Shown here piece after piece: positions 3,158 through 39,914 of a stretch of DNA of 39,943 nucleotides. The notes under the pieces are model-generated. The model searched no databases and had not been told where the DNA came from. It was given only the letters and a program-made list of their open reading frames with translations. This DNA is from Actinomycetota bacterium (GTDB lineage Bacteria > Actinomycetota > Humimicrobiia > Humimicrobiales > Humimicrobiaceae). Position 1 is the first letter of the stretch, and each line of letters starts with the position of its first letter. A program made the translations under genes and the position numbers. The stretch covers positions 2,475 through 42,417 of the forward strand of contig JAQVEM010000001.1 in the NCBI GenBank assembly GCA_028697935.1, given 5' to 3'.

Positions 3158-4501
3158 TTAGATAGAATTTGAATTAAGAGTAGAGTCAATAAAATATTTT
3201 CTTTTGCCCGATTTTGCAAGGTAGGGAGATTCTGTCTCTTTTATAGTTATTTTAATGTCAGGACCAGCTTGTTTATTTAAGGTACTCAAAATTAAATCAT
3301 CATAAAATGAATTATAATTATTTAATTTAATTAACCAACATACAAGTTCATAATCACTTATCTTTTCTAGGCAATAATACTCTACAGGAATATCTTTAAA
3401 AAGGATAGTAAAACCTGGACCTGTTAATACTCTCCTATTTCCTAAAGTAATTATATCTGAAGTTCTACCTAACACACTATTAATTATTTGTCCATTATAT
3501 TGATAGGATTTATTTATATCATCATCTATGATTATATTGTCACCGACTTGATAATTAATTAAAGGTGTAGCTATATTAAATAAGTCAGTTAACAATGCCT
3601 CCCCTGAATTATTATCACCCTTTTCTTTTAATCTTACAATACTGTTATAACCCACTTCATAAAAACCAGGCACATCAGAAAATGCACATATTCCTCCATC
3701 ATTAGCACCATAACAATCCATAATATTACAATTAAAAGCCTCCTGAATAGTCTTACGATAATTATCAGTCAGTACTTCTGAAGTAGGAAAGCAACATTTA
3801 ATTTTTAAATTTATATTATTTTTTATTACATATTTGGCTAATAGATAAAGTGATGAAGCATAACCATATAAAAAATGAATATGCTTTTTCTTTATCAAGT
3901 CTACATATGATGCACAAGTTTCATCTGACATATTTATACCGTTTACAGCAATTTTCCCCTTTAATCTATAATAAATTATATGCTTAAATGAAGATTTGTG
4001 TTCTACATATAAAGAACTACTTCCTAATGCTAAAAATGGATCTGAATATCTATACCCCATTTTCTCCCAATTATACCAAGTATCAGCATTAATAAAACTC
4101 CAGGAATCATAACTTTGATAATAAGCTGATGGATTTCCAGTTGAACCCCCTGTATGACCTTTTATATGAGGAATATTATTAATCTGTTTAGAGATAAATT
4201 GGGGGAATTTATCCCGAAGCGTATTCTTTGTTAAAATAGGTATATATTTAAGGTCATTAATGTTTTTAATATCTGATGGCACTATATTATTTTCAGCAAA
4301 TAAATTTTTATAATAATCTGTATTTCTATAAGCATATTCAATTAGCTGAGTTAATTTTTTATTCTGCCATTCAGCTATTTCTGATTTACTCCAACAATTC
4401 ATATCTTTTATTTGATTGTAAAATTTTTTTAAAGATGTGTGCATTAATAAATCTGCAAGTGGAATAAATATATTCTTAATAACATACTTATTATCTATCA
4501 T
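3158..4501 (-). CDS. CapK-like / F390-synthetase-family adenylate-forming enzyme (second paralogue)
   Basis: 447-aa ORF with the motif KGHTGGSTGNP and the same architecture as 1657..2976. Its first ~130 codons are duplicated in decayed form at 5891-6278. Confidence 0.7.
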   Translation of the reverse strand: MIDNKYVIKNIFIPLADLLMHTSLKKFYNQIKDMNCWSKSEIAEWQNKKLTQLIEYAYRNTDYYKNLFAENNIVPSDIKNINDLKYIPILTKNTLRDKFPQFISKQINNIPHIKGHTGGSTGNPSAYYQSYDSWSFINADTWYNWEKMGYRYSDPFLALGSSSLYVEHKSSFKHIIYYRLKGKIAVNGINMSDETCASYVDLIKKKHIHFLYGYASSLYLLAKYVIKNNINLKIKCCFPTSEVLTDNYRKTIQEAFNCNIMDCYGANDGGICAFSDVPGFYEVGYNSIVRLKEKGDNNSGEALLTDLFNIATPLINYQVGDNIIIDDDINKSYQYNGQIINSVLGRTSDIITLGNRRVLTGPGFTILFKDIPVEYYCLEKISDYELVCWLIKLNNYNSFYDDLILSTLNKQAGPDIKITIKETESPYLAKSGKRKYFIDSTLNSNSI

Positions 4502-5602: not shown

Positions 5603-5890
5603 TTATAATTTTTTACTTATTAAATTATGATATATTTCTGATAGTTTATAGATTTGTCTATCTAAATTGAATTCTTTTTTTAGATATTCTCTGCTCCTTA
5701 ACCCTAAGTTAATTCTTTTTTCTTTATTATTTATAAGTTCTTCCATTTTATTAGCTATTTGCTCTATGCCTCTTTGCCTAACCAAAATGCCCCTTCTACC
5801 AAAATTTAGTACCTCTGGAATACCAGCATGATCAGTTGCAATACAAGGTAATTGCATAGCTTGTGCCTCCGTTAAAACCTCAGCAATCAC
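5603..5890 (-). pseudogene. C-terminal fragment of a GT-B (GT4-like) glycosyltransferase
   Basis: The 95-aa ORF begins with a GTG in the middle of the C-terminal domain (TEAQAMQLPCIATDHAGIPEV, the EX7E region). The N-terminal domain is absent. Its stop abuts the start of the CapA-like gene as an operon junction would. Confidence 0.75.
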
Positions 5891-6278
5891 GACTTTGATA
5901 ATAAGGAGATGGATTTCAAGTTGAATTTCCTGTATGACTTTTTCTATGTGAAATATTATTAATTTGTTTGGAAATAAATTCGGGATATCTATGACGGAGA
6001 ATATTCTTTGTTAAAATAGGTATAAATTTAAAGGCAATAATGTTATTTTAAAATATCTGATGACATTATTTTATTATAATCAAATAAATTTTATAATAAT
6101 CTATATTTCTATAAGCTAATCAATCAGCTGAGTTAATTTTTTTCAGCTATTCAGCTATTTAAGATTTACTCCAGCTAAGCATATCTTTGATTTGATTATA
6201 ATTTTTTAAAAAAGTTTGTATTAACAAATCTGTAGCAGGTAATAATAAATTCTTTACGATATTATATCCTATATTCAT
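5891..6278 (-). pseudogene. Decayed duplicate of the 5' ~130 codons of the CapK-like gene 3158..4501
   Basis: Aligns by eye with 4112-4501, including the ATG (cat at 6276-6278 versus 4499-4501). There are many substitutions and indels, and no ORF of 60 aa or more survives. Confidence 0.8.
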
Positions 6279-9812: not shown

Positions 9813-10555
9813 TCTCACGCAGATTGCGCTGATTCCGCAGATAAGTGCTCTCACAGATAACACAGATTTTAGTTTACCTCTCACAGATTACACGGATAAC
9901 ACAGATAAAAATTTATAATAATAAGATGTTAATATTAGAAGAATTACCGCACGCAGATTGCGCTGATTACGCAGATTTCTTTATTTATGTTAAGAATATT
10001 AAGCACAATCTAAAATTCTGAATTTATCATAGTATATATTATTAAAACCAAAACTGGGCTTAGACATTTCCTTTGCGATTTCAAGAGAGTTAAAATTATA
10101 ATATATTATCAATCATCCATCTGCGTTATCTGCAAAATCTAAGTACTGTATATTTTCATCTCACGCAGATTAAAGAATTTATAATTATAACATTAATAAT
10201 CATCTAACACTTCAAGTATTTATCGCAGTTTATAGTCATTGAAATAAATCATTTGGCTCAGATATTTTTTATTAGATTCCAATATAGTTAAAATTATAAT
10301 GTTTAATAATCATCCATCTGCGTTATCTGCGATATCTGCGTGAAATATAAATAATTATGTTACAGATAACACAGATTATTGTTTTGTAATAAAAAGAGTT
10401 TAAAGTACTTTACTATAAATTAGATCCTCTTACCTTTTTAATTAAGCTATGAATTTTAGGGTAGGTAAAATATAACAAATTTAGATTATTTTGAATTCTT
10501 ATTATAATTAAATCCAATCTGCGGAATCCGCGTTTTTATCTGCTTAATCCGCGGG
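9813..10555. repeat. Composite repeat region: phased 7-mer arrays alternating with core modules M5, M3, M4 and M1
   Basis: Plus-strand order (R = array as CRCAGAT, F = array as ATCTGYG; c = C/G-type, t = T/A-type). R-c 9813-9842, R-t 9848-9867, R-t 9878-9906, M5 9907-9947, R-c 9948-9976, M3 9977-10118, F-c 10119-10140. Then R-c 10159-10170, M4 10171-10315, F-c 10316-10345, R-t 10363-10376, M1 10397-10506, and a degenerate F-c 10517-10555. No ORF of 60 aa or more. Confidence 0.9.
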
Positions 10556-11756: not shown

Positions 11757-12791
11757 TTAATCATAAAAAGGATGTTTATCTCCTAATCCTAACTCCGCTC
11801 TTACATAATCTACTGTTAACAATTTTTCTTTTATTTCAGGTATTGTTAGTCTTTGAGTATTTTCGGAAGTATAATCTTGCACCTTGCTTACCTTTTGTTG
11901 TCCTTTTTCAAAATATATATCATAGTTTAAATCTCTTGTATCTGCAGGTATTCTATAATAACCTGGTAGTTCTATAGCTTTTGCCATCTCTTCTCTATTA
12001 ACCAGAGTTTCATGTTTCTTCTCTCCATGCCTGGTACCTATTATTTTTATTGTCGTTTTTGTTTCGAAGAGTTCTATCAACGCTTGAGCAAGATCTTGAA
12101 TAATACAAGCGGGAGATTTTTGTACAAAAATATCTCCTTGTTGTCCATTTTGATAAGCATAAATAACTAATTCAACTGCTTCTTCTAAGGACATTAGATA
12201 ACGAGTCATTTCAGGATCAGTAATAGTAATTGGTTTCCCTGATTTAATTTGCTCTATAAACAGAGGAATTACCGAACCTCGTGAAGCCATCACATTTCCG
12301 TAACGAGTTCCACAAAGAACTGTTCCGTTTTCAAGTTGCTGTCTGGAATAGGCAATCATAACTTTTTCCATCAGTGCCTTAGACATCCCCATAGCATTTA
12401 TAGGATACACTGCTTTATCCGTAGAGAGTACAATTAGCTTTTTAGCATTATTAGCAATAGCAGCCTTAATTACATTCTCTGCACCCAAAATATTGGTTTT
12501 AACAGCCTGAATAGGAAAAAATTCACAGGAAGGAACCTGTTTTAAAGCTGCAGCATGGAAAACATAATCAACGCCTAACATCGTATTATCAACGCTATCA
12601 TAATCTCTTACATCTCCTATATGAAACTTTATTTTAGAATTATCATAAAATTTCCGCATATCTTCCTGCTTTTTTTCATCCCGACTGAAAATTCTAATTT
12701 CTTTTATATCCGTATTCAGGAAACGATGAAGTACTGTATTGCCAAAGGAACCTGTTCCACCAGTAATCATTATTGTTTTATTTTCAAACAT
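11757..12791 (-). CDS. fnlA: UDP-N-acetylglucosamine 4,6-dehydratase/5-epimerase (FnlA / CapE family)
   Basis: 344-aa ORF with MITGGTGSFGN, IRIFSRDEKKQEDMRK, HAAALKQVPSCEF, LSTDKAVYPINAMGMSKALMEK, GTRYGNVMASRGSVIPLF and GTRHGEK. These blocks match my recollection of CapE/FnlA proteins closely. Confidence 0.85.
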   Translation of the reverse strand: MFENKTIMITGGTGSFGNTVLHRFLNTDIKEIRIFSRDEKKQEDMRKFYDNSKIKFHIGDVRDYDSVDNTMLGVDYVFHAAALKQVPSCEFFPIQAVKTNILGAENVIKAAIANNAKKLIVLSTDKAVYPINAMGMSKALMEKVMIAYSRQQLENGTVLCGTRYGNVMASRGSVIPLFIEQIKSGKPITITDPEMTRYLMSLEEAVELVIYAYQNGQQGDIFVQKSPACIIQDLAQALIELFETKTTIKIIGTRHGEKKHETLVNREEMAKAIELPGYYRIPADTRDLNYDIYFEKGQQKVSKVQDYTSENTQRLTIPEIKEKLLTVDYVRAELGLGDKHPFYD

Positions 12792-14091
12792 TATTATTTA
12801 CCCTCATTATATAATTATTATTTGATATATCATTATAATTATTAGTGTAAATAAAATTTGCTCCTGGAACAATTAGAAACCAAAAAATCCAGGTATGATC
12901 AGAACCAGTATTTTTTAAAAGTCCCATAGCTACAAAAGCTATAATGCTAAGCATATAATAAGGAATATACTTCTTATTCAGAATTTTCAAATTCCTTTTA
13001 TAATTATCCACAATTAGCCATACCCAAGGCACAAAACCTAATAGTCCAAAAGCAGATAACATATCAAACCACTGAGCATGATTAGTGTGTAATCCACCAC
13101 CACTAATCGGATTACTTAAAAAAGACTCTAAAAGCAAAGGAATTCTCCCTAAACGCCTACCTGCATGATAAGGACTTGCATAATAATCTAGATAGGGATT
13201 TTCTATGGTTAAACCAGCATCAAATAATCTATCACCAAGAACAGAGTGAGGAAAGAATTCAGAGCTTCTATAAAAAATCTGAGCAATTGCAGAAGATGGT
13301 ATTACTAAAACAACTATTAATAATGCTATAACTAAGTATATAATATCTTTTTTGTAATTTTCTCTTAAAAAAATAGCAGTAATTCCGAAAATAGCGGAAA
13401 AGAGCAGAAATGCAGTAATTTTAGCATAGATTATTGAAGAGAAAGATAATAATATAAATAGGATCCATCCTATTTTTTTATAACTTTCTATTTGCAATTT
13501 AATTACCATATATACTAATATAGGAAATATTGAACATAAAGCATTAAAAAAACCATAATCCAATAGTCCTAAATATTTATAATATTCACTTAAGTAAAAT
13601 GTTCCTAAATATATATGAGCTTCTCTTATCGCCTCAGGGTAATTTAAAAAGACCAATAAAGAATTAATTACTCCTAAAAAAGTAAAAATAAAAGCTCTTT
13701 TGCATATTCTTCCCAGCGTAATAAAATCATTTTTATGGATATAGTGATTATATACTAAAAGAGCGATAAAAAGAGGAAAATAATCAATAATAACAGATTT
13801 AATATTCAAATATTGCCCTCTTTCCCAAATAATTATGCTTTTTTCCCATATTAACGGAGTAAATATTATATGAATAGCAAAAAAAACATAAAACGGGATC
13901 AGTGACTTTAAAAAGTATGATTTAGGATATAATATGGCAAACGCTGCAAATACTAATGCACTATAAAAATAGTTTGCATGAAATGGAGACGGTAATTGCA
14001 GAAAAGGTAAAGGGAATAATAATCGGGCTAAATACAGAGTGATGACTATTTCAAGTATAGTATGTCTGGTTATATCAGTTTGAACTTTCAC
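12784..14091 (-). CDS. Multi-pass membrane protein, O-antigen polymerase / ligase-like (Wzy_C type)
   Basis: 435-aa highly hydrophobic ORF with about 10 or more predicted TM segments. It has a loop GGGLHTNHAQWFDMLSAFGLLG resembling the Wzy_C/O-antigen-ligase motif, and sits in a polysaccharide locus. Confidence 0.55.
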   Translation of the reverse strand: MKVQTDITRHTILEIVITLYLARLLFPLPFLQLPSPFHANYFYSALVFAAFAILYPKSYFLKSLIPFYVFFAIHIIFTPLIWEKSIIIWERGQYLNIKSVIIDYFPLFIALLVYNHYIHKNDFITLGRICKRAFIFTFLGVINSLLVFLNYPEAIREAHIYLGTFYLSEYYKYLGLLDYGFFNALCSIFPILVYMVIKLQIESYKKIGWILFILLSFSSIIYAKITAFLLFSAIFGITAIFLRENYKKDIIYLVIALLIVVLVIPSSAIAQIFYRSSEFFPHSVLGDRLFDAGLTIENPYLDYYASPYHAGRRLGRIPLLLESFLSNPISGGGLHTNHAQWFDMLSAFGLLGFVPWVWLIVDNYKRNLKILNKKYIPYYMLSIIAFVAMGLLKNTGSDHTWIFWFLIVPGANFIYTNNYNDISNNNYIMRVNNNV

Positions 14092-18063: not shown

Positions 18064-18293
18064 ATATTACTTAACCTCCATATAACTTATATAAAATTTA
18101 ATTTAATGCACATATTACTAATATGTTATAACCTTATCCTTCCTCCAAATACTATGCATTAATAAAGTTATGTTTTTATACATATAGTATATTTCTTTCT
18201 ATTGCCCCCAAAAGAATGGGAAAGTAAAGGTAATGTATCTTTATTTGGATAGAGGGAACGGATGAAATCAATGATTGGTTGGTATTCCATAGT

Positions 18294-18362
18294 CTACAAA
18301 TTAGTCCACCAATTTACACAAATTAAGGAGAATCCACAAATTTACACAAATTAACACGAATT
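18294..18362 (+). repeat. Phased 8-mer arrays, CACAAATT/CACGAATT dialect (two triplets), left flank of GxxExxY gene 1
   Basis: The sequence is ctacaaatta GTCCACCAATTTACACAAATT aaggagaa TCCACAAATTTACACAAATTAACACGAATT. The period is about 10 bp, and the array runs into the stop codon of 18362..18739. Confidence 0.85.
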
Positions 18363-18739
18363 TATAAGATGAGGCGTTTATATACTAAACTTGAGGATCC
18401 AAAGTTGACTAATAAGCCAACTCTAAGTTTGGTAGCCTTTAGGTAGTTTAATAATTGAGAGATATGATCGTTAGAGATTTCTGCAAGAGCTTTTACTTCA
18501 ACAATTATATTATCAAAGCATAAAAAATCGGCTTTATAACATTTATCTAGGGTTTTCCCTTTATATACTATACGAATATCCTTTTCTTTTTCAAAAGGTA
18601 TTCCTTGCTCTAAAAATTCAAGCATTAAAGATTCTTGATATACAGCTTCAAGAAATCCCGGTCCCAATTCCTTATGAACATTCATACACGCTCCAATTAT
18701 CTTGTAGCATTCTTCTTTATACATAATATCATTATTCAT
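18362..18739 (-). CDS. GxxExxY protein (PD-(D/E)XK nuclease-fold, PDDEXK_3-like), copy 1
   Basis: 125-aa ORF with the family motif GPGFLEAVYQ (G-x-x-E-x-x-Y) and a downstream D...EVK (ADFLCFDNIIVEVKA) typical of PD-(D/E)XK cores. Confidence 0.85.
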   Translation of the reverse strand: MNNDIMYKEECYKIIGACMNVHKELGPGFLEAVYQESLMLEFLEQGIPFEKEKDIRIVYKGKTLDKCYKADFLCFDNIIVEVKALAEISNDHISQLLNYLKATKLRVGLLVNFGSSSLVYKRLIL

Positions 18740-18750
18740 AATTCAAGTAA

Positions 18751-18770
18751 AATTGTGCAAATTGGTGGAC
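18751..18770 (+). repeat. Inverted partner of the 18304-18321 motif (aattgtgcaaattggtggac)
   Basis: Its reverse complement gtccaccaatttgcacaa matches gtccaccaatttacacaa (18304-18321) at 17 of 18 positions. It lies between the GxxExxY start and the stop of the upstream gene. Confidence 0.85.
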
Positions 18771-19747
18771 TATAAATTATATATTCCCGGTTTATATTTG
18801 GCTAAGTTTCGTGGATCGCTGAACCACTCTACTGTTTTTTCAAGACCTTCTCTTAAAGGATATTGAGGTTCATAACCAGTTAGTTCTTTTATTTTGGTGT
18901 TATCACATCTTAATCTGAAGACTTCAGAATGTTCGGGTCTTAACCTTTGTTCTTCAACTATAAGATTTGCATCACTGTGCATTATATCTTTAATCAATGC
19001 AAATAATTCTTTTATAGAAATCTCATCATTTGAACCGATATTTACGGTTTCACCAATTGCTTTATCGCATTTAGCTAATAAAATAAAGCCATTACAAATA
19101 TCTTTCACATAATTGAAATCACGAGTTGGAGTAGTATCACCAATCTTAATTTCTTTATTTCCACTAGCAATTTGAGTGATAATTGTCGGAATCACCGCCC
19201 TGGCAGATTGACGAGGACCATAAGTATTAAATGGACGAACTATAGTAACAGGAAGTTGATAAGCATAATAAAAGCTCGTAGCAATCGCATCAGCACCAAT
19301 TTTACTGGCACTATATGGTGATTGAGGTTGCAATGGATGTTTTTCATCTATGGGAACATATTGTGCGGTACCATAAACTTCGCTGGTAGAAGTTACTAAT
19401 ATTCTTTTGACCTTACAATCTTTAGCTGCTTGACAAATATTCAAAGTGCCTTTGATATTAGTATCTATAAAGCTTTGTGGAGCAATATATGAATAGGGAA
19501 TAGCAATCAATGCAGCTAAGTGGAATATAACATCTATCCCCTTACAAATTTCTCTACAATATGCTGGATCTCTTACATCTCCACAAACAATCTCTAAATT
19601 AGAAGTTTGTTGAATATCTTCCAGCCATCCCCAGTAATTAAAAGAATTATATTGAGCTAAAGCTCTAACATCATATCCTTCCGCTAATAAAGATTCTGTT
19701 AGATGTGACCCAATAAATCCATCAGCTCCCGTAACTAAAACTTTCAT
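18770..19747 (-). CDS. NAD-dependent sugar-nucleotide dehydratase/epimerase (extended SDR, LegB-like 4,6-dehydratase type)
   Basis: Rossmann motif [12 protein letters not shown], then [11 protein letters not shown], and a catalytic YSASK. I use the ATG at 19747, which is preceded by AAGGAAG. The tracked GTG extension (VDRRKED) reads into the repeat motif. Confidence 0.75.
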   Translation of the reverse strand: MKVLVTGADGFIGSHLTESLLAEGYDVRALAQYNSFNYWGWLEDIQQTSNLEIVCGDVRDPAYCREICKGIDVIFHLAALIAIPYSYIAPQSFIDTNIKGTLNICQAAKDCKVKRILVTSTSEVYGTAQYVPIDEKHPLQPQSPYSASKIGADAIATSFYYAYQLPVTIVRPFNTYGPRQSARAVIPTIITQIASGNKEIKIGDTTPTRDFNYVKDICNGFILLAKCDKAIGETVNIGSNDEISIKELFALIKDIMHSDANLIVEEQRLRPEHSEVFRLRCDNTKIKELTGYEPQYPLREGLEKTVEWFSDPRNLAKYKPGIYNL

Positions 19748-19762
19748 ATCTTCCTTTCTTCT

Positions 19763-20073
19763 GTCCACGAATTTTCACAAATTAGCACGAATTATTATAA
19801 TTATCTAAATTTATTATAATCCAATTTTGCTATTTAATTAATTCAACTTTGCCAAATCTCTCAAAACCCTTATTCCCCTTGACTTACATTGAGGACAGGT
19901 AACGACGAGTATGTCGTTTATTCTGGAAAGTATCCATCCGCTCTCTGTCCTTACCCTCTCAACATTCTCAATACATGTAAAGCTTCAGCACGCTCCGACT
20001 ACACAAATTTTTCAATCCTCTAATCCCCTTTCAACCTTCTCTATTTCGTGTTAATTTGTGCAAATTCGTGGAC
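19763..20073. repeat. 311-bp non-coding element bounded by ~31-bp terminal inverted repeats of the CACGAATT dialect (MITE-like)
   Basis: The left end is GTCCACGAATTTTCACAAATTAGCACGAATT (19763-19793). The reverse complement of the right end (20041-20073) is GTCCACGAATTTGCACAAATTAACACGAAATAG, with about 28 of 31 identical. The 247-bp core has no ORF and contains a GC-richer hairpin segment. Confidence 0.7.
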
Positions 20074-20226
20074 TAAGTTAGAGGTTTGTTGAATATCTTC
20101 CAGCCATCCCCAATAATTAAAAGAATTATATTGAGCTAAAGCCCTAACATCATATCCTTCTGCTAATAAAGATTCTGTTAGATGAGACCCAATAAAACCA
20201 TCAGCACCCGTAACTAAAACTTTCAT
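20074..20226 (-). pseudogene. Duplicated 5' fragment (codons 1-51) of the SDR gene 18770..19747
   Basis: 153 bp align with 19595-19747 with 8 mismatches by my count, and the encoded 51 aa are identical. The reading frame then runs into the repeat (tail [10 protein letters not shown], tracked ORF 20041..20226). Confidence 0.9.
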
Positions 20227-20336
20227 TTATTCAATCCTTTATATTATTCCATAAAAAAAATAGTGGTTAATTTATAAAGTATTTATTAAGTTTTTTTGTA
20301 TCAATTAATAAATCTTTTACTGTTCATAATGTAAGC

Positions 20337-23405: not shown

Positions 23406-23489
23406 AGATGTGACCCAATAAATCCATCGGCTCCCGTGACTAAAACTTTCATATCTTCGTTTCTTCTGTCCACGAATTTTCACAAATTT
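23406..23489 (-). pseudogene. Third copy of the SDR gene 5' end (about 15 codons plus 37 bp of upstream leader including the GTCCACGAATTTTCACAAATT motif)
   Basis: About 81 bp match 19703-19783 with 3 mismatches. Two are synonymous, and one is in the Shine-Dalgarno region (aaggaag to aacgaag). Confidence 0.85.
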
Positions 23490-25126: not shown

Positions 25127-26120
25127 CTCTCACAGATTGCACAGATGACACAGATAAGGTCTCTCACAGATTACACAGATAACACAGATAAAAATTTATA
25201 ATAATAGGTTGTAAACATTAGCAGGATTACCTCACGCAGATTACGCTGATTTCGCAGATAAGTTCTCTCACAGATAGCACAGATATAATTTATAATTAAA
25301 AATATGTTCATTTACAATGCATTAATGTTTGTAGCTAAATTTTATAGCTTTTAAATTGATCAATTAGCTCAATTTATCTCACGCAGATTACGCTGATTCC
25401 GCAGATATGGTCTCTCACAGATTACACAGATATCACAGATTATAATTATAATAAGATTGTTAAAACTGTATCAATTAATTAAAATTGCGTCTTATCGGCA
25501 TATATTAACATTCCCCTTGAATTAATTTTTAAAATCAGAATAAGTTCTTAGAGCATTACCATTCTCTATTCTAAAAAACTAATAAGGGCTTTTTTAAATA
25601 ACCGTTAGTATAAACCATGTTTCTATTCCAGATAAAATTATCATATCCATCAATTTCATTATAAGTGTTTTTAAAGTAATTCTGAAGTTAATTCATTATG
25701 ACGGTAAGAAATAGCACAATTTACATTATACATTAATTCTTTTAATTTCACTATAAATCCTTATCTGTGATATCTGTGATATCTGTGTTATCTGTGTTAT
25801 CTGTAACATAATTTTTTATATTTCACGCAGATATCGCAGATAACGCAGATGGATGATTATAAATACATTATAATTTTAACTATATTGAATCTATTAAAAA
25901 ATATCTGAGCCAAATGATTTATTTCAATGACTATAAACTGCGATAAATACTTGAAGTGTTAGATGATTATTAATGTTATAATTATAAATTCTTTAATCTG
26001 CGGAATCAGCGTAATCTGCGTGCAGTAATTCTTCTAATATTAACATCTTATTATTATAAATTTATATCTGTGTTATCTGTGCTATCTGTGAGAGACCTCA
26101 TCTGCGATATCTGCGTGAAA
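25127..26120. repeat. 1-kb ORF-free composite repeat region between wzx start and the next gene's stop
   Basis: Left half, all R orientation: R-t 25127-25155, R-t 25161-25189, M5-like 25190-25229, R-c 25230-25259, R-t 25265-25284, inverted M2 25285-25376, R-c 25377-25406, R-t 25411-25440. A unique 322-bp centre spans 25441-25762. Right half: F-t x5 25763-25805, R-c 25821-25850, inverted M4 25851-25994, F-c 25996-26023, inverted M5 about 26024-26065, F-t 26066-26096, F-c 26100-26120. Confidence 0.9.
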
Positions 26121-26128
26121 CATTAAAC

Positions 26129-27058
26129 TTATTTATAAAAATCAATTGTACGAGCTAGTCCTTCTTTAAAATCCACTTTCACTTCATAATCTAAGATTTC
26201 TTTGGCTTTGTCTATACTTGCCCAAGAATGTTTAACATCACCTGGTCTTTCAGGTGCAAACTGAGGTTCTATGTTCTTTCCCAGGATATCATTTATCATC
26301 TTTACTAAATCCAGAAGAGTATAGGATTCACCACAGGCAATATTTATTACTTCACCTGGAGCTTTTTCTGCGGTACAGGCTAAAATATTAGCCAGAACAT
26401 TGTTTTCAACATAGGTAAAATCACGCGATTGAGTGCCATCACCACAGATTATTGGTTCTTTATCTTCACTTATAAGTTTAATAAATTTAGGAATAACAGC
26501 ACTATATTGAGAGGTAGGATCTTGATTAGGACCAAATACATTGAAATAGCGAAGTGATGCGGTCTCCAACCCATATAAATTATAGTATATCTGACAATAT
26601 CTTTCCTGAGCATATTTGGTTAAAGCATAAGGAGACATTGGATTAACTGGCATAGTTTCTATCTTAGGAAGTGTTTCACTATTTCCATAAATAGAAGAAG
26701 AGGAAGCACAGATTACTCTTTTTACTCTAAATTCTTTTGCCGCCTCCAGGATATTAAGAGCACCCAGGATATTCACATCATTGGTTGTAATAGGGTCGTT
26801 AATAGAACGAGGCACCGAAGGAAGTGCTCCTTGATGCAGGATAAAATCAACTCCTTTAACGGCAGCTCTAACAATATGAAAACTTCTTAAATCCCCTTCT
26901 ATAACTGTTAAATGTGGATTGGTTATCAAAGGAAGAATATTATCACGTTTACCGGTGGCAAAATTATCCAACACCCGAACTTCCTGACCCTGCTTTAATA
27001 ACTCTTTCACTATATTGGAACCGATAAACCCTGCTCCACCTGTCACTAAATATTTCAT
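26129..27058 (-). CDS. NAD-dependent sugar-nucleotide 4-epimerase (extended SDR, WbpP/TviC/GalE-like)
   Basis: 309-aa ORF with VTGGAGFIGSN, VLDNFATGKRDNI, catalytic YALTK, and RYFNVFGPNQDP. Confidence 0.8.
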   Translation of the reverse strand: MKYLVTGGAGFIGSNIVKELLKQGQEVRVLDNFATGKRDNILPLITNPHLTVIEGDLRSFHIVRAAVKGVDFILHQGALPSVPRSINDPITTNDVNILGALNILEAAKEFRVKRVICASSSSIYGNSETLPKIETMPVNPMSPYALTKYAQERYCQIYYNLYGLETASLRYFNVFGPNQDPTSQYSAVIPKFIKLISEDKEPIICGDGTQSRDFTYVENNVLANILACTAEKAPGEVINIACGESYTLLDLVKMINDILGKNIEPQFAPERPGDVKHSWASIDKAKEILDYEVKVDFKEGLARTIDFYK

Positions 27059-27078
27059 TATTTATTCCTCAATTTATA

Positions 27079-27501
27079 CCTCACGCAGATTACGCTGATT
27101 ACGCAGATTTCTTTATTTATAATTTGAGTGTCAAACATAATCTAAAGTTCTGAATTTATCTATGAATATTGCCAATAATATCAATTAATAGTTGGTTTGG
27201 AGATTTCTTTAACGAATTCAAGAGAGCTAAAATTATAAAGCATTATCATTCATTTATCTGCGTTATCTGCGATATCTAAGCACAGTATATTGTCATCTCA
27301 CGCAGATTACGCTGATTTCGCAGATTAAAGAATTTATAATAAGAATTATAATCATAATCTAAAATCCCAAAGTATTTTCTTATAATTTTGTAACTATACT
27401 CAATTATATGGCCTAAAGCTTTTTAAAGATTTCACTACAGTTAGATTAAATTATTAAACATAAAAACATCCATCTGCGTTATCTGCGCTATCTGCGTGAA
27501 A
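27079..27501. repeat. Composite repeat region (R-c, M3 copy 2, F-c, R-c, diverged M4-like core, F-c)
   Basis: R-c 27079-27107, M3 27108-27255 (alignable to 9977-10118), F-c 27256-27277, R-c 27296-27325, a core 27326-27471 whose ends resemble M4, and F-c 27472-27501 (atctgcgttatctgcgctatctgcgtgaaa). Confidence 0.85.
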
Positions 27502-27511
27502 CATAACTAAT

Positions 27512-27907
27512 TTATTGAAGATCTGGATGATGAATATCATTTGCTACTCTTATTATATTGTCTTTGATTGAATCAGTATTGAAATTGATCAGAAAACCTA
27601 AAGGTTTCTTTGCTATTTTTAGATAAGTTATCAATTGCTTATAATGAACTGGTAATAATGTATCAACAGATTTCAATTCGAGGATTACTTGATCATTTAT
27701 TAAAAAATCAAGTCTGTACTGAATTCCAAGGTTAACACCTTTGTATAGAACTTCTATGGGAACCTGATTTTCTACTTTCAGACCTCTATTATTTAATTCA
27801 ATTAAAAGAGCTTGCGCATAAATATTTTCAAGCAAACCCGGACCTAATATATTGTAAACCTCAAAAACTGAACCTCTGATTTGATAACTTATATCATTCA
27901 AATTCAT
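27512..27907 (-). CDS. GxxExxY protein (PD-(D/E)XK nuclease-fold), copy 2
   Basis: 131-aa ORF with the motif GPGLLENIYAQ and a downstream LDFLINDQVILELKS (D...ELK). Confidence 0.85.
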   Translation of the reverse strand: MNLNDISYQIRGSVFEVYNILGPGLLENIYAQALLIELNNRGLKVENQVPIEVLYKGVNLGIQYRLDFLINDQVILELKSVDTLLPVHYKQLITYLKIAKKPLGFLINFNTDSIKDNIIRVANDIHHPDLQ

Positions 27908-27915
27908 TGTATTTT

Positions 27916-28225
27916 TCTCACGCTGATTACGATAATTCTATTTTTCATTTTATTTCACGCAGATTACGCTGATTTCGCTGATTTTTTTACTTATAATAAG
28001 AATATTCAAAATAATCTAAATTTGTTATATTTTACCTACCCTAAAATTAATAGATTAATTAAAAAGGTAAGAGGAGCTAATTTATAGTAAAGTACTTTAA
28101 ACTCTTTTTATTACAAAACATTAATCTGTGATATCTGTGCAATCTGTGAGAGGTGAAAAAAATCTGTGTTATCTGTGCAATCTGTGAGAGACCTTATCTG
28201 CGTTATCTGCGAAATCTGCGTGAGA
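27916..28225. repeat. Composite repeat region (degenerate R, R-c, inverted M1, two F-t units, F-c)
   Basis: Degenerate tctcacgctgattacgat 27916-27933, R-c 27953-27982 (tttcacgcagattacgctgatttcgctgat), inverted M1 27991-28103, F-t 28122-28153, F-t 28162-28193, F-c 28194-28225. The tracked plus-strand ORF 27881..28087 simply reads through these repeats. Confidence 0.9.
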
Positions 28226-28230
28226 TATCA

Positions 28231-28677
28231 CTAAATTAGGGCAGAAAGTTTTCGCCAATCACGAACCTTTTCTAGATATCCTGCTTGTATTGCTGATGCT
28301 ATAGAACGACAGGGTAGATTTTGTTCAACTATATCTTCTTTGCTTAAGGTTTTCAAATCCAGATCAGGATAATCTTTCAAGGTAGCTCGCATAATCTTCA
28401 AAAATACATTGGGCCAGGTGCTCATTGGTTTCCCTTGAGAATGATATTCACGATTATATCTCTGTATATATATTCTACAATCTTCTTTGTATTCTTCACT
28501 TATAATAATTCTTTTGGCAAAATCAAATATTTTTTTCATAATTGCATTAGAGACACTTGGTTTAGGAATCACTGTTCTTCTTGAAATATACTTATCTAAA
28601 TGAGAATTATAATATGTAACATACTTTTCTTCATTCCCATCAAGTCTTGGAATATTCATTTTTACTTTTGGCTTCAT
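28231..28677 (-). CDS. Hypothetical protein (no family recognised)
   Basis: 148-aa ORF with a good GAGGAG Shine-Dalgarno 6-7 nt upstream of the ATG. It is basic and hydrophilic, and I see no recognisable motifs. Confidence 0.5.
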   Translation of the reverse strand: MKPKVKMNIPRLDGNEEKYVTYYNSHLDKYISRRTVIPKPSVSNAIMKKIFDFAKRIIISEEYKEDCRIYIQRYNREYHSQGKPMSTWPNVFLKIMRATLKDYPDLDLKTLSKEDIVEQNLPCRSIASAIQAGYLEKVRDWRKLSALI

Positions 28678-29518: not shown

Positions 29519-29548
29519 AAAAAGCCACCTAAATTCCCGAAAAATAGT

Positions 29549-29917
29549 TTAATGGGCAATTCTCTGGAATTCTAATTTTGCCACATTGCCAAAGTTTAAG
29601 ATATATCCTACTTTGAGCCCTGTTGCACTTAGATAATTTATTATTTGTGCGCAATGCATTGAATGAATTATATTACAAGCTTTGAGCTCCAGTATAATTT
29701 TACCTTCTACAATAATATCAGCAATATAATCTCCAACAATTTGATCTCTATAAAAAACTGGTATAGGAACCTGATAAACATAACTAATACCTTGATATTT
29801 AAATTCTACACATAAAGCTCGTTCATATACTTTTCCCAAATATCCGGCACCCAGCTCTTTGTGAACAGCAATTGCACAACCAATAATTCTATCACTCAGC
29901 TCCTTCTCATATATCAT
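29549..29917 (-). CDS. GxxExxY-family protein (PD-(D/E)XK fold), copy 3, with the signature Glu replaced by Gly
   Basis: 122-aa ORF that aligns with copies 1 and 2. Its motif reads GAGYLGKVYE (G-x-x-G-x-x-Y), while the D...ELK block (ADIIVEGKIILELKA) is retained. Confidence 0.8.
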   Translation of the reverse strand: MIYEKELSDRIIGCAIAVHKELGAGYLGKVYERALCVEFKYQGISYVYQVPIPVFYRDQIVGDYIADIIVEGKIILELKACNIIHSMHCAQIINYLSATGLKVGYILNFGNVAKLEFQRIAH

Positions 29918-29950
29918 AAATTTTGGGCTTTCCCTTTCTTATTTTAAAAA

Positions 29951-30424
29951 TTATATAACCTTTTCGGTGTCTTCGGTGCTATCGGTGGCTAATATTTTTG
30001 TATTGTAAATTACCTTTCGGTGCTCTAGGTGTTTTCGGTGGCTAATAAAAATAAACAGCAGAGTCAATATTGCTCCAAAGAGATTCGCTATCATATCCAT
30101 AGGATTAAAGGTTCTATAAGGCAAGAGATATTGTAAACATTCACTGATTATAGCAGAACCGCCTACAATTAGTATATATTTCAAAACAGATTTATGATTA
30201 AAAATTGGATTGCCTTGCCTTTCCGCTATCAAATATAAAGGGATAAAGACAAGAAAAGATACAAAATGAATAAGATAATCCAATCTAAATTCAAATATAG
30301 ATTTGTGAATGATACGATTTAAATCATCTCCCAAGGGAATAACATTCATTGCTAAAACTATAATCAGCCATCCCCAAAATAACCATCTTGCCCCATTTGC
30401 CATCCTTTTATCTTGTATCATCAT
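29951..30424 (-). CDS. VanZ-like family membrane protein
   Basis: 157-aa ORF with 4 TM-like segments. It has DYLIHFVSFLVF and SECLQYLLPYRTFNPMDMIANLFGAI, resembling VanZ-family blocks. The last ~30 codons are encoded by the TTCGGTG arrays. Confidence 0.6.
   Translation of the reverse strand: MMIQDKRMANGARWLFWGWLIIVLAMNVIPLGDDLNRIIHKSIFEFRLDYLIHFVSFLVFIPLYLIAERQGNPIFNHKSVLKYILIVGGSAIISECLQYLLPYRTFNPMDMIANLFGAILTLLFIFISHRKHLEHRKVIYNTKILATDSTEDTEKVI
29961..30043 (+). repeat. Two phased triplet arrays, TTCGGTG dialect, separated by a 22-bp spacer
   Basis: 7-mers ttcggtg / ttcggtg / atcggtg start at 29963, 29972 and 29981. 7-mers ttcggtg / ctaggtg / ttcggtg start at 30016, 30025 and 30034. The period is exactly 9, and each triplet ends in GGCTAAT. 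Confidence 0.9.
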
Positions 30425-30434
30425 TATATTTTTT

Positions 30435-30542
30435 TCTCTGTGCTCTCAGTGGTTAAATTTTTGTCGGTGTATTCGGTGTTCTCGGTGGCTAATATTTTTG
30501 TATTGTAAATTACTTTTCGGTGCTCTTGGTGTCTTCGGTGGC
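30435..30542 (+). repeat. Second copy of the TTCGGTG double-array module plus a ctctgtg/ctcagtg pair
   Basis: 7-mers start at 30435 and 30444, at 30462, 30471 and 30480, and at 30515, 30524 and 30533 (period 9). The internal spacer gctaatatttttgtattgtaaattac is the same as at 29988-30013. Confidence 0.9.
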
Positions 30543-31658
30543 TTCTTCTTTTTTCTCAAACCATTCATCAAGTACTTTTACAATTCTGCTGGCTGTCTTT
30601 CCATCCCAATATTTAGGTATTTTCCCCTGTTTTACATTCCCTTCAATAATTTCCCTGGCACTATTAACGATACTTTCCACATTCAAGTCAACAAGATGAT
30701 TGGTACCTTCTGTAACGGTTATCGGTCTTTCCGTATTTTCTCGTAAGGTTAAACAAGGAACACCAAAATAGGTTGATTCCTCTTGAATACCTCCCGAATC
30801 TGTTAGGATAAATTTTGCATTCATCTCTAACTTGAGAAAATCTAAATATCCTAATGGCTCAGTAATAATAAGATTTGAACTAGTATTTAAAATAGATGAT
30901 AAACCAAGTTCATAAATATTTTTCCTCGTTCGGGGATGCATAGGAAAGATAATCTTTATTTTTCTCCCTATGATTTCCAAAGAGGTTAGCAACATTTTTA
31001 AACCTTCATACTCATCAACATTAGATGGTCTATGTAATGTTACTAAGGCATATTTTTCATTAGGTACCATATTTAATTGGTGAAAAATATTAGAATTTTC
31101 AGCTTTATCTTTATGTGCGACCAGAGAATCAATCATAATATTTCCCACAAAATAAATTTTACCTGGCTCTATACCCTCTTTTTCCAAATTTTTATTTGCA
31201 TCCAGCGAAGGTGTTAATAAAATATCGGATATTCTATCTGTTAGAACTCTATTTATCTCTTCAGGCATTCTATCATCATAACTTCTTAGACCCGATTCAA
31301 GATGAGCTACAGGAATATATAATTTCTTAGCCACTAAAGCACAAGCAATTGTAGAATTAACATCACCTGCAACAATAACTAAATCAGGTTTATCCTCTGA
31401 TAGAATCAAATCTTCATATCGTTCTATTATCCTGGCTGTCTGTTTCCCCTGTGTGCCTGAACCTACATTTAAATAGGCAGATGGCTCAGGCATAGCCAAA
31501 TCATTAAAAAAGAGTTTGGACATTTGTTCATCATAGTGCTGTCCTGTATGTATTATCTGGGGTTCATATCTATTACTATACAACGATAATTTTCTATAAA
31601 GAGGTGCCATTTTCATAAAATTAGGTCTTGCACCCACTATCAAATGAATTAATCTCAT
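30510..31658 (-). CDS. wecB: UDP-N-acetylglucosamine 2-epimerase (non-hydrolysing, WecB family)
   Basis: 382-aa ORF with VGARPNFMKMAPL, HTGQHYDEQMS, GDVNSTIA and HLESGLRSYDDRMPEEINR. The last ~11 codons (EEATEDTKSTEK) are encoded by the repeat array. Confidence 0.85.
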   Translation of the reverse strand: MRLIHLIVGARPNFMKMAPLYRKLSLYSNRYEPQIIHTGQHYDEQMSKLFFNDLAMPEPSAYLNVGSGTQGKQTARIIERYEDLILSEDKPDLVIVAGDVNSTIACALVAKKLYIPVAHLESGLRSYDDRMPEEINRVLTDRISDILLTPSLDANKNLEKEGIEPGKIYFVGNIMIDSLVAHKDKAENSNIFHQLNMVPNEKYALVTLHRPSNVDEYEGLKMLLTSLEIIGRKIKIIFPMHPRTRKNIYELGLSSILNTSSNLIITEPLGYLDFLKLEMNAKFILTDSGGIQEESTYFGVPCLTLRENTERPITVTEGTNHLVDLNVESIVNSAREIIEGNVKQGKIPKYWDGKTASRIVKVLDEWFEKKEEATEDTKSTEK

Positions 31659-37859: not shown

Positions 37860-39821
37860 TCAAACAATTACCTCTCCTTTCACCCAGCCCTCTTCTGGAT
37901 TAACTTCGGATATGATTAATTTAACTGAGTTATGCAGTGGTAAAATCTCCTCTGATTGGAGGAAGATATGTTTATCCCAATTAGTTATTTCAACTAGATA
38001 GCCATCTGTCATAGAACGGATAAGGATGGCATTAAGGGGTTGCTGAAGATATTTTCTCTGAAGAAAGCAAAGAAACCAATATTGTTCACTACGAGCAGCT
38101 ACAGTATGCAAATATAAAACTCGTTCTTCTATTACAGGTATTATAGTTCTCAATTCATCAGCAGAAAAAGGCGGTTTTCCCTTTTTTAGCAAAGCTTCAA
38201 ACTGAACTTGATTGATGATATCAGTAACCCTTCGGATCGGAGAAGTACTATGCAGATAGGCTTTTGAGCCAATTCCAGGGTGAAATCCTGCCTCAGTAGA
38301 AAGAAAAACCTGGTAATAATTATTAGAATCCTCATTCCAACCTTCTTCGTATTGAGCAATATTCCGGTAAATGCAGGGAAGTCCACTCGCAGAAGCGTAT
38401 TCAGCCAGAAAGCGATTATAAAGCACCATCAGTTCTTCAATCAATAAGCGGGAAGGACTATAAAAATCAATACATTCCATCATCAGTTCGCCATTTTTAC
38501 AGACCACATTCCATTCATATCTATTTTTCCCATTACTCTCAAATATCTTATGTCCTTGATTAATATTCCGCACTAACTGAAATAAAGATGAATGCTGGTT
38601 GTTACTTAAATAGCTATCCATATCTTTATAACTGAGGTTTTGTTTCACGCAGATATATTCTGATTTAAATTCCTCTTTTTGAATTTTGAATTGGTTATCC
38701 AAAAACAGATATAAAGACAGCACCTTTCTATTTTCTCCTGCTTTTAGACTGAAAACATCACTGGAAAAGGATGGCGGAAGCAAAGGAATAGTTTCGCAAG
38801 GAAGATATAAAGAGCTAACTCTTTCGCAAGCTTCGTTAAATACAGGAGAATTTAGAGGAAGTTGACCTCCTACATCACTGATATGAATACCCAAAATCCA
38901 TCCCTGCTTAAACTCTTGAAGTGAAATGGCATCATCATAATCGGGAGAATCTGCTGCATCTATAGTAAAGGCATCCAGATTTGCTATATTTTGTCTGCTG
39001 GATTTCTGCTTCAATTCAGCTTGCAATTTCCTCGCTTCTTCCAGCACTTCAGCACTGAAATTTATCGGAATGCCACTATCAGCAGCTATCTTGTCCGTAT
39101 TAGGAGATATATCACCCAGAAGCAAACGAATATTTCTGATTAATGTTCTCAATTTCTGATCGTTACTAAATTTACGGAGAATTTTTGCCAGGTCTTTAGG
39201 TGTGTTCCAACGAAGTAATTCTCTTAGTTCAGCAAGGAATCTTGTTCTGGATTCAGGTGCAAGTGAGGGAGAAATTTGATATTTTATGGTTGAAAAAGAA
39301 TACAGAGAAAGCAAAATATCCAGGTTAGCTTGCAGAAACCTTTCCACTTCTTGTAGAAAAATAGCTCTTTCTTTTGTTTCTGCTTCTTTTTTAAGGTATT
39401 TTAGGCGTTCTTCTTCATTGCGAAAAGAAAAGACCCCCTTTTTGTATTTAAGAAGGTCTTTTCTTTGCAAAATAAGCAAATAAAGGGCAAATCGTTCTAA
39501 ATCATCCTTATCTCCAAGATAGGAGTTTGCCTCATCAAAAGTGAAAGATTCCTTTCTTTCTTGCAATTGCTGAAGCCAAATTTCGCCTTGTTCTTCCATT
39601 TTAAATCTTATTTTATCCTTCAAATCCTTCAAAGTGTTAGAGGATAAAGGTTCATAGCATTTATCCGAAACAAGGATAAATCGTGCAGAAGGTAAAATAT
39701 AGCTTTCGCCCTCTTCACTTAGCACCTTCCAGTGTTTATTCTCTATCCCAGTTATTATGCCAAAATGGAGGTTCCCGTCCTGATAGAAGAGAACTATTTT
39801 CCCTATTTTAAGATTGACCAT
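37860..39821 (-). CDS. RNase II / RNase R family 3'-5' exoribonuclease (RNB domain)
   Basis: RNB motifs DAFTIDAADSPDYDDAISL and HSTSPIRRVTDIINQ. The start is set at Met18 (ATG 39821, AAGGA 5 nt upstream), because the tracked TTG extension is the tRNA gene read in frame. Confidence 0.85.
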   Translation of the reverse strand: MVNLKIGKIVLFYQDGNLHFGIITGIENKHWKVLSEEGESYILPSARFILVSDKCYEPLSSNTLKDLKDKIRFKMEEQGEIWLQQLQERKESFTFDEANSYLGDKDDLERFALYLLILQRKDLLKYKKGVFSFRNEEERLKYLKKEAETKERAIFLQEVERFLQANLDILLSLYSFSTIKYQISPSLAPESRTRFLAELRELLRWNTPKDLAKILRKFSNDQKLRTLIRNIRLLLGDISPNTDKIAADSGIPINFSAEVLEEARKLQAELKQKSSRQNIANLDAFTIDAADSPDYDDAISLQEFKQGWILGIHISDVGGQLPLNSPVFNEACERVSSLYLPCETIPLLPPSFSSDVFSLKAGENRKVLSLYLFLDNQFKIQKEEFKSEYICVKQNLSYKDMDSYLSNNQHSSLFQLVRNINQGHKIFESNGKNRYEWNVVCKNGELMMECIDFYSPSRLLIEELMVLYNRFLAEYASASGLPCIYRNIAQYEEGWNEDSNNYYQVFLSTEAGFHPGIGSKAYLHSTSPIRRVTDIINQVQFEALLKKGKPPFSADELRTIIPVIEERVLYLHTVAARSEQYWFLCFLQRKYLQQPLNAILIRSMTDGYLVEITNWDKHIFLQSEEILPLHNSVKLIISEVNPEEGWVKGEVIV

Positions 39822-39838
39822 ATAATCCTTTATATCTA

Positions 39839-39914
39839 TGGCGCCCCAGAGATGATTTGAACATCCGACCAACGGTTTAGGAAACCGCTGCTCTATCCTC
39901 TGAGCTACTGGGGC
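39839..39914 (-). tRNA. tRNA-Arg (anticodon CCT/CCU), CCA encoded
   Basis: The minus-strand 76-nt sequence is GCCCCAG TA GCTC AGAGGATA GAGC A GCGGT TTCCTAA ACCGT TGGTC GGATG TTCAAAT CATCT CTGGGGC G CCA. It folds into a canonical cloverleaf with a 7-bp acceptor, 4-bp D stem, 5-bp anticodon stem and 5-bp T stem with a TTCAAAT loop. Confidence 0.9.

Follow-up and report, generated by a model that had tools for sequence, protein, structure and literature searches.

Why should a small nuclease-like gene lie between two repeat arrays that both point at it, when the arrays around its relatives nearby point away? The question arises in a stretch of 39,943 nucleotides of Actinomycetota DNA, hereafter the window, and concerns the second of its genes of the GxxExxY (PDDEXK_3) family, copy 2 (27512..27907, minus strand, 131 aa). 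The gene is flanked on the left by an alpha array with a GTGAAA tip (27472..27501, plus strand, atctgcgttatctgcgctatctgcgtgaaa) and on the right by a beta array with the same tip (27953..27982, minus strand, tttcacgcagattacgctgatttcgctgat). Both are triple-nonamer arrays, and they are inverted copies of one another, matching at 24 of 30 positions and sharing a perfect 12-mer (ATCTGCGTGAAA / TTTCACGCAGAT) that is gene-proximal on each side; they differ in type, every heptamer of an alpha array being ATCTGCG and the middle heptamer of a beta array being ATCAGCG. Read in the sense of copy 2, the left array is reverse (R) and begins 10 nt past the stop codon, and the right array is forward (F) and lies upstream of the gene. 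A degenerate forward-array remnant (27916..27933, minus strand, tctcacgctgattacgat), consisting of the tip TGAGA and the single heptamer ATCAGCG, precedes the ATG by 8 nt; in the related strain L217, this site carries a full beta-like array with the same terminal ATCAGCGTGAGAAAAATACAATG. In outline, this agrees with a first-pass annotation of the locus, which had placed copy 2 between inverted ATCTGCG arrays with the GTGAAA tips toward the gene, had noticed the degenerate copy and had quoted every sequence at its correct position. It had also set copy 2 against copies 1 and 3, and rightly so, as the tips of those two (GGTGGAC and GGTGGCT) point outward. Copy 1 (gene 18362-18739) lies inside its unit (18290..18772, minus strand), which uses the AATTTGTG dialect with a period of 10 and ends in the terminal inverted repeat GTCCACCAATTT...AAATTGGTGGAC. 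Copy 3 (gene 29549-29917) likewise lies inside a unit (29519..30043, minus strand), here of the TTCGGTG dialect, with two reverse arrays upstream (29961-30043) that overlap the 3' end of VanZ; the forward array on the downstream side (29519-29548) is degenerate and carries the GGTGGCT tip.

Arrays of this kind are abundant in the window: the two-unit pattern ATCTGCGNNATCTGCG, with at most 2 mismatches, matched 59 times against an expectation of 0.06, and 28 period-9 triple arrays were found against none in shuffled sequences. They consist nearly always of exactly three nonamers, each of 7 conserved bases and 2 free ones, with a tip after the last, and fall into two main dialects, ATCTGCG (tip TGAAA or TGAGA) and ATCTGTG (tip AGAGG or AGAGA). 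Both flanks of copy 2 belong to larger, non-coding units. Unit U1 (27078..27280) comprises a beta arm (27084-27108) with its tip toward the start of an epimerase gene, a core and a degenerate alpha arm (27256-27280). Unit U2 (27299..27501) comprises a beta arm (27299-27325, tip TCTCAC), a core (27326-27471) and an alpha arm (27472-27501), and folds into a long hairpin in which the two arms form 7-bp helices separated by 2x2 internal loops (z = -5.5). Unit U3 (27953..28227) starts with a beta arm and continues with a core of about 140 nt (27983-28123), two ATCTGTG arrays (28124-28148 and 28162-28186) and an alpha array (28196-28220) whose tip, GTGAGAT, is 3 nt away from the stop codon of a 148-aa gene; the core is repeated at 1-120 and 10362-10496 (93-96%), and the pairing of the beta array inside the unit is weak (z = -1.0). 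The left array of copy 2 is thus the right arm of U2 and its right array the left arm of U3, and the earlier description of the gene as sitting between two units, not inside one, holds. In gene-direction reading, each of the three units is RC(alpha)-core-beta, all with one shared polarity, and copy 2 is beta, gene, RC(alpha). As the units carry their tips outward, any gene between two of them appears with the tips facing in. Ordinary genes do the same. The NAD-dependent epimerase gene (26129..27058, minus strand) has a forward array upstream and a reverse array downstream, and wherever an ATCTGYG array adjoins an ordinary gene of the window, it is forward if it lies upstream of that gene and reverse if it lies downstream. 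Genes and units in the window are all co-directional, and the arrays lie within 3-25 nt of stop or start codons.

Whether copy 2 departs from a rule can be judged from the family at large, for which we used a gene-first sample of 80 diverse metagenomic GxxExxY genes, 40-55% identical to copy 2 (L163 alone reaching 83%). Arrays were called with a chained-heptamer detector; a detector with a strict period missed most of them because the spacing ranges from 8 to 12 nt. Heptamer arrays were present within 150 nt of the gene at 55 of the 80 GxxExxY loci, in 9 of 422 control windows (2%) and in none of 160 shuffles, an enrichment of about 30-fold (Fisher p = 5e-44); about 30% of the 80 genes had no detectable array. 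The array consensus is CTCTGYG with the tip GTGAA or GTTAA, in 3-4 tandem copies spaced by 8-11 nt and with exactly three units in 79% of cases, and the dialects are many, among them CTCTGTG, CTCCGTG, CTCTGCG, CTTTGCG, GTCTGYG and ATCTGYG. The tips of some other phyla (ATCTGTGGATAA) brought the DnaA box to mind, a candidate that was rejected by inspection as neither the internal units nor the window tips GTGAAA and GTGAGA fit it. The two arms around one gene have a common dialect and spacing; their spacer lengths were mirrored in 26 of 28 cases, and their spacer bases were merely 54% complementary. The nearest upstream array was R at 32 loci and F at 7 (p = 7e-5), and the nearest downstream array F at 30 and R at 9 (p = 1e-3); the orientation of arrays at GxxExxY genes is therefore non-random. 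Genes with R upstream and F downstream outnumber those with F upstream and R downstream by 13:3, the canonical layout being 4-5 times commoner than the tips-in one. The norm for the family, then, is a gene inside a unit, the reverse array immediately preceding its ATG, the forward array immediately following its stop codon and the tips pointing outward. Cultured bacteria provide further examples of the gene: in Bacteroides finegoldii, canonical arms separate the gene from radA on one side (TTCACCACAGAG...) and from the next gene on the other (...CTCTGTGGTGAA); in Sphingomonas, a GxxExxY gene is inserted between fabD and fabG; and Bernardetia has another.

The first-pass annotation had named random orientation as the outcome that would favor mere co-localization, that is, GxxExxY genes and arrays piling up independently in repeat-rich intergenic DNA. 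That ordinary genes are array-flanked too, and that 118 of the 120 array-first loci listed (see below) lack a GxxExxY gene, could be read in this way. However, the roughly 30-fold flank enrichment and the strongly non-random orientation contradict it, as do the shared dialect and spacing of the two arms of one gene and an association that holds from Bacteroides to Gemmatimonadota; we regard an unrelated coincidence as scarcely credible.

The orientation at copy 2 had prompted two further suggestions, that the system may tolerate both arrangements or that the arrays may be landing sites for the gene. Neither is supported, because ordinary genes such as the epimerase look alike in this respect and the canonical state dominates. 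The second suggestion, in which an armless GxxExxY gene was inserted at the tip-to-tip junction of two pre-existing units, nevertheless has points in its favor: a tip lies just 8-13 nt from the gene on each side (upstream it is that of the remnant at 27916-27933, where L217 has the full array), units do cluster, and the tips-in layout with complete units on either side, as at copy 2, recurs in the unrelated L153, L189, L198 and L207 and in cultured Gemmatirosa. But the geometry is identical at the epimerase and other ordinary genes, the gene-inside-unit state is several times the commoner one, and comparison between strains, to which we now turn, speaks against it on two further counts, so that we consider it unlikely.

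Ten metagenome contigs encode a protein identical to copy 2; across them, the segment that runs from the epimerase through the upstream unit is 93-98% identical, the gene and its upstream unit are nearly invariant, and two contigs (L001 and L008) have another unit type downstream. At 28238, L001 seemed to show a block boundary, which proved to be a scaffold gap (Ns) and was rejected as a junction; farther down, strain-to-strain homology stops inside the array cluster at 26042-26075. Strain L217, with an 88% homologue of copy 2, also shows the tips-in layout, and its units are simpler. More distant homologues differ: L163 (83%) and L131 (55%) are canonical, with tips out and in the same dialect, and so is Candidatus Cloacimonas acidaminovorans (L214, 76% identity). 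In the latter, the homologue lies on the opposite side of the epimerase, the copy-2-like element is a tandem R-gene-R-gene-F with the perfect terminal repeat tgtcccaCGCAGAT...ATCTGCGtgggaca, and three further copies form a second cluster 7 kb off. In L131, a canonical element stands directly upstream of the same epimerase, the very position of copy 2, which is one count against a landing of the gene between units. Copy 2 belongs to the lineage with the ATCTGCG dialect, and the tips-in state that it has in the window looks derived, since the homologues in L214, L163 and L131 are tips-out in the same dialect. No simple route to it was found: we considered inversion, circle integration and unequal crossing-over between arrays, and none of them turns a canonical element into a tips-in one. 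An empty site of copy 2 was not found by looking up either the epimerase or the 148-aa neighbor, the latter returning short contigs with the same arrangement only. For copy 3, L217 provides such a site. With its arrays, copy 3 is present in the window, in L002 and in L214, with 2 to 4 upstream reverse arrays; in L217, the whole block is missing and VanZ directly adjoins the next gene. Gain and loss of a GxxExxY gene therefore include its arrays, the second count against an armless insertion. The presence of copy-2-like elements at two sites, and in tandem, in Ca. C. acidaminovorans is further evidence of such block mobility, as are the insertions between fabD and fabG in Sphingomonas and, with canonical arms, after radA in B. 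finegoldii.

An entirely different reading places the function at the RNA level: within a co-directional transcript, inverted array pairs would form stems, for mRNA stabilization in the manner of REP/BIME elements or as an RNase III site like those of rRNA intervening sequences, and the arrays around copy 2 would loop out its ORF as the canonical ones do, both designs then being functional. Several features are consistent with this. All genes and units share one direction of transcription with arrays 3-25 nt from their start and stop codons; in canonical elements, the reverse array stands too close to the ATG for a promoter to fit; the spacers of the two arms mirror each other in length; and the copy-2 flanks could form a perfect, gene-adjacent stem of 12 bp. 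On the other hand, on the sense strand G.U was not enriched over A.C among the arm mismatches (15 vs. 20, a small test of little power); the agreement between the flanks of copy 2 is limited to 24 of 30 positions, whereas within U2 the left array is strongly paired (the pairing in U3, as noted, is weak). The RNA-level reading is weakened by the missing G.U bias, which speaks for the DNA level, and by this preference of the left array for its own unit. Moreover, a stem leaves unexplained why the heptamers are three in number, discrete and conserved while their spacers are free, and no Rfam family matched: in the window, a tRNA was the sole match at the gathering threshold, and what a permissive threshold added over the arrays were spurious miRNA and snoRNA models. 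We therefore rate an RNA-level role, the looped-out ORF at copy 2 included, as improbable.

Copy 2 scores 142.5 bits against TIGR04256 (cutoff 35) and 144.1 bits against PF13366 (cutoff 22), and copies 1 and 3 likewise exceed both cutoffs. In an alignment of 43 sequences, D67 and E77 are invariant, K79 is conserved in at least 90%, and Q91 and Y95 of the QxxxY motif are invariant. The predicted model (pLDDT 90) places D67, E77 and K79 on strands E58-70 and E74-79, that is, the D ... (D/E)-x-K arrangement on a central beta-sheet that defines the PD-(D/E)XK fold, and its top structural match is the Cas4 protein SSO0001 (E = 8e-4, TM 0.59), followed by LHK-Exo, lambda exonuclease and the nuclease domain of AdnAB, all moderate (E about 1e-3, TM 0.5-0.6). 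On the strength of its RecB/Cas4-like core (D67, E77-x-K79, Q91-xxx-Y95), copy 2 is predicted to be a RecB/Cas4-like PD-(D/E)XK nuclease, with both the QxxxY motif and the fold in place and the structural similarity moderate, and the intact motifs suggest that the predicted nuclease is probably active. It is not a true Cas4, as it contains no cysteine and hence no four-cysteine Fe-S cluster, and there are no cas genes in the window. A PDB sequence search with copy 2 gave no relative, and tblastn against phage genomes gave no GxxExxY, so that there is no phage link. The PF13366/TIGR04256 family is very large, with at least 8,000 scored candidates, essentially all within the E-value threshold. 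The 2012 survey of PD-(D/E)XK proteins lists its function as "Unknown" and notes multiple horizontal transfers. Searchable papers on GxxExxY/PDDEXK_3, PF13366, TIGR04256 or Cloacimonas repeats contained no description of the system.

Arrays are not confined to the surroundings of these genes. Scanning species-representative genomes with the pattern ATCTGYGnnATCWGYGnnATCTGYG gave at least 120 loci, in Acidobacteriota, Planctomycetota, Verrucomicrobiota, Chloroflexota, Cyanobacteria, Cloacimonadota, Bacteroidota and even archaeal MAGs, where the arrays again form short palindromic units, in genomes of 34-73% GC despite their AT-rich heptamers. Among the matches listed, 68 adjacent array pairs are R..F, with tips outward, 63 of them with a gap under 200 nt, and 14 are F..R; a GxxExxY ORF was found at 2 of the 120 listed loci, and gene-less units thus outnumber gene-bearing ones. 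The sole longer candidate for a cargo other than GxxExxY among the listed array-first loci, in L085, showed nothing suggestive by eye. Complementarity between the ends of a unit extends over about 28 nt and then stops, and outside 24 units, compared as filled sites, we saw neither a target-site duplication nor a direct repeat; the mechanism is therefore probably not classical cut-and-paste.

The wide distribution also bears on the idea that the arrays are Chi-like, oriented outward as signals for RecBCD or AddAB, protecting the enclosed DNA and focusing recombination. This would account for arrays at the junctions of variable polysaccharide loci and fits oriented, G/T-rich heptamers in 3-4 tandem copies with flexible spacing, the end of between-strain homology within the array cluster at 26042-26075 and an associated protein with a RecB-family nuclease fold. 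Yet the 40-kb window holds only about 5 isolated ATCTGYG heptamers against about 5.5 expected by our base-composition estimate, several dialects exist within one genome, and identical heptamers occur in very distant phyla, unlike the species-specific Chi. With heptamers not over-represented outside arrays and with dialects coexisting, the case is weakened to the point that we think it very improbable.

What then does the arrangement at copy 2 mean? The account that we favor, and hold to be moderately probable as a whole, is that copy 2 is a resident nuclease gene in the gap between two independent, gene-less repeat units of a selfish nuclease-plus-repeat system that operates at the level of DNA. 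A unit is a polar palindrome of tip, three reverse heptamers, core, three forward heptamers and tip, belonging to a very widespread family in which the GxxExxY gene normally takes the place of the core. The RecB/Cas4-like nuclease may act on the heptamer arrays themselves or on a hairpin or cruciform structure formed by them, and so copy or maintain the units, much as a transposase gene serves its miniature derivatives or a RAYT its REPINs. In the window, gene-less units would have accumulated beside the gene or replaced its own arms, and the reversed orientation would be a by-product and not a second functional design. From the pattern of association, we infer a selfish mechanism in which the nuclease works on the arrays at the DNA level; the tie between the two is nevertheless purely associative, and a gene simply co-inherited with its flanks would give an identical pattern. 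For mechanistic models, the consequence is that the tips-in orientation should not enter as a second functional design. More broadly, the GxxExxY family gains a testable context, as a nuclease with a candidate DNA substrate, and an abundant, conserved class of repeats that current genome annotation ignores comes into view. These arrays probably break metagenome assemblies, extend ORFs artificially and mark junctions in variable polysaccharide loci.

Array-bounded GxxExxY units in many phyla apparently represent an undescribed kind of selfish repeat system, and comparison with known ones helps to define it. Like the ends of Tn7, Mu or Ac/Ds in pairs of autonomous transposons and MITEs, the units have terminal inverted repeats made of 3-4 direct repeats, with polarity and a defined tip, and short non-coding derivatives share the arms; Tn7 even has a PD-(D/E)XK nuclease in its TnsA. 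Unlike those pairs, they have no DDE or other transposase as a partner, their repeats are just 7 nt long at 8-11 nt spacing, and their cargo is one protein of 120-130 aa; at the 24 filled units compared, no target-site duplication was found. Free-standing homing endonuclease genes, PD-(D/E)XK ones included, are similar in being small nuclease genes between co-directional genes (here fabD and fabG, radA and the next gene, VanZ and the next gene) with presence/absence polymorphism at a conserved intergenic site, as for copy 3, absent from L217; they differ in that they carry no structured inverted arrays and spawn no abundant gene-less units. Integron cassettes with attC sites also alternate short ORFs with imperfect palindromic units in a single orientation, and chains of unit, gene and unit resemble cassette arrays, but no integrase was seen here and the canonical ORF lies inside the palindrome, not beside it; inspected for the attC core sites (RYYYAAC / GTTRRRY), the unit tips had none. 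Intervening sequences of 23S rRNA with an ORF hold a small ORF in the loop of a long inverted-repeat stem, as is the case here. The present units, in contrast, lie between protein genes, have stems of heptamer arrays and are associated with no rRNA gene.

A close parallel is with REP/REPIN sequences and their RAYT (tnpA_REP) genes in Pseudomonas, E. coli and others. There, too, a small single-copy enzyme gene lies between inverted short repeats, numerous inverted doublets without a gene are dispersed over intergenic regions and between cistrons, and each paralogue within a genome has a repeat variant of its own. Target-site duplications are absent in REPs, and none was seen here outside the 24 filled units compared. 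The gene-less doublets far outnumber the gene, as in REPINs, with gaps under 200 nt in 63 of 68 R..F pairs and a gene at 2 of 120 listed loci. The differences are as clear: RAYT is an HUH-Y1 transposase and the gene flanked here is PD-(D/E)XK and RecB/Cas4-like; a REP is a GTAG-headed imperfect palindrome and the arm here is three tandem heptamers and a tip; and the heptamers, unlike REPs, recur across phyla. Ca. C. acidaminovorans (L214) has, at 12360-13020, a RAYT-like Y1_Tnp gene accompanied by unrelated REP hairpins of its own, in addition to its GxxExxY elements, and the two systems are therefore distinct. It is conceivable, though we put this forward only tentatively, that GxxExxY genes and triple-heptamer arrays make up an undescribed, pan-bacterial class of selfish elements in which the nuclease recognizes or cuts the units and drives their spread, gene-less derivatives included. 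With comparable reserve, one may picture this class as the PD-(D/E)XK counterpart of RAYT and REPINs, reaching from Bacteroides to Planctomycetota and Acidobacteriota.

The arrays upstream of copy 3, the GxxExxY gene of TTCGGTG dialect that adjoins VanZ, expand and contract in tandem, since the number of reverse array-plus-core modules there varies among the strains compared: the window has two (29961–30043), the related strain L002 has four (3780–4060), and the Candidatus Cloacimonas acidaminovorans locus (L214) has three (3473–3633) together with one of the CTCAGTG dialect. Among the loci found by array scan, many short MAG contigs have a terminus about 250 nt or less from an array, and frequently 40 nt or less (L019, L020, L028, L034, L053, L089 and others), which suggests that the arrays are multicopy repeats that break assemblies. 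Tandem organisation at a larger scale is seen at 241–462 of the window, where five tandem ATCTGTG triple arrays, joined by the linkers GAGAGGTTAACAAAAA and GAGAGACCTT in alternation, form a 74-nt higher-order repeat.

In the window, two pairs of TTCGGTG-dialect arrays, each pair enclosing a 22-nt core, reach into coding sequence: the one at 29961–30043 overlaps the VanZ ORF at its 3' end, and the one at 30461–30543 does the same with the Epimerase_2 ORF. The odd C-terminal tails of the two ORFs, ...ATDSTEDTEKVI and ...EEATEDTKSTEK, are array encoded; given that the VanZ ORF of the related strain L217 ends differently, it is probable that these tails are either annotation artefacts derived from the repeat or recent replacements. 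The first 25 or so codons of an NAD-dependent epimerase gene occur in three copies (19701–19783, 20180–20262 and 23406–23488; 71–96%), and a AATTTGTG-dialect array follows two of these, the first and the last; the fragments appear to have been duplicated together with arrays or beside them. Elsewhere, about 340 nt from the 5' part (4093–4434) of the gene for a 447-aa protein (3158–4501) recur at 79–83% at 5873–6214, within the gap upstream of 5603–5890, and this second copy is probably a gene remnant. At the far end of the window, the TTG at which the 670-aa RNase R-like ORF (37860–39872) is annotated to start is overlapped by a tRNA gene (39842–39914, minus strand, 65.5 bits), and the true start of the ORF must therefore lie further downstream.

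Beyond the window, a subgroup of canonical elements (L139, L144, L146, L156 and L205), with the GxxExxY gene inside the unit and the tips outward, carries an additional hairpin between the gene and each array; the loops, TGAGAGG upstream and CCTCTCA downstream of the gene, echo the tip sequence GAGAGG found with the ATCTGTG dialect in the window. In Sphingomonas parapaucimobilis (L220, NZ_CP155749.1, 482837–483265), the fatty-acid synthesis operon carries, between fabD and fabG, a GxxExxY gene whose ATG is abutted by a reverse array (TTTTCACGCGAAGGCGCGAGGACGCGAAG) and whose stop is only 2 nt from the fabG start. The Ca. Cloacimonas acidaminovorans locus (L214, CU466930) also holds at 12360–13020, just downstream of a tandem repeat of about 117 nt with TTCGGTG arrays, a 116-aa Y1_Tnp (RAYT/IS200-like) gene together with inverted hairpins, GGGACGACAG...AACCCGGTGA, on both sides; this is a classical REP/RAYT-type arrangement and has no relation to the heptamer arrays.
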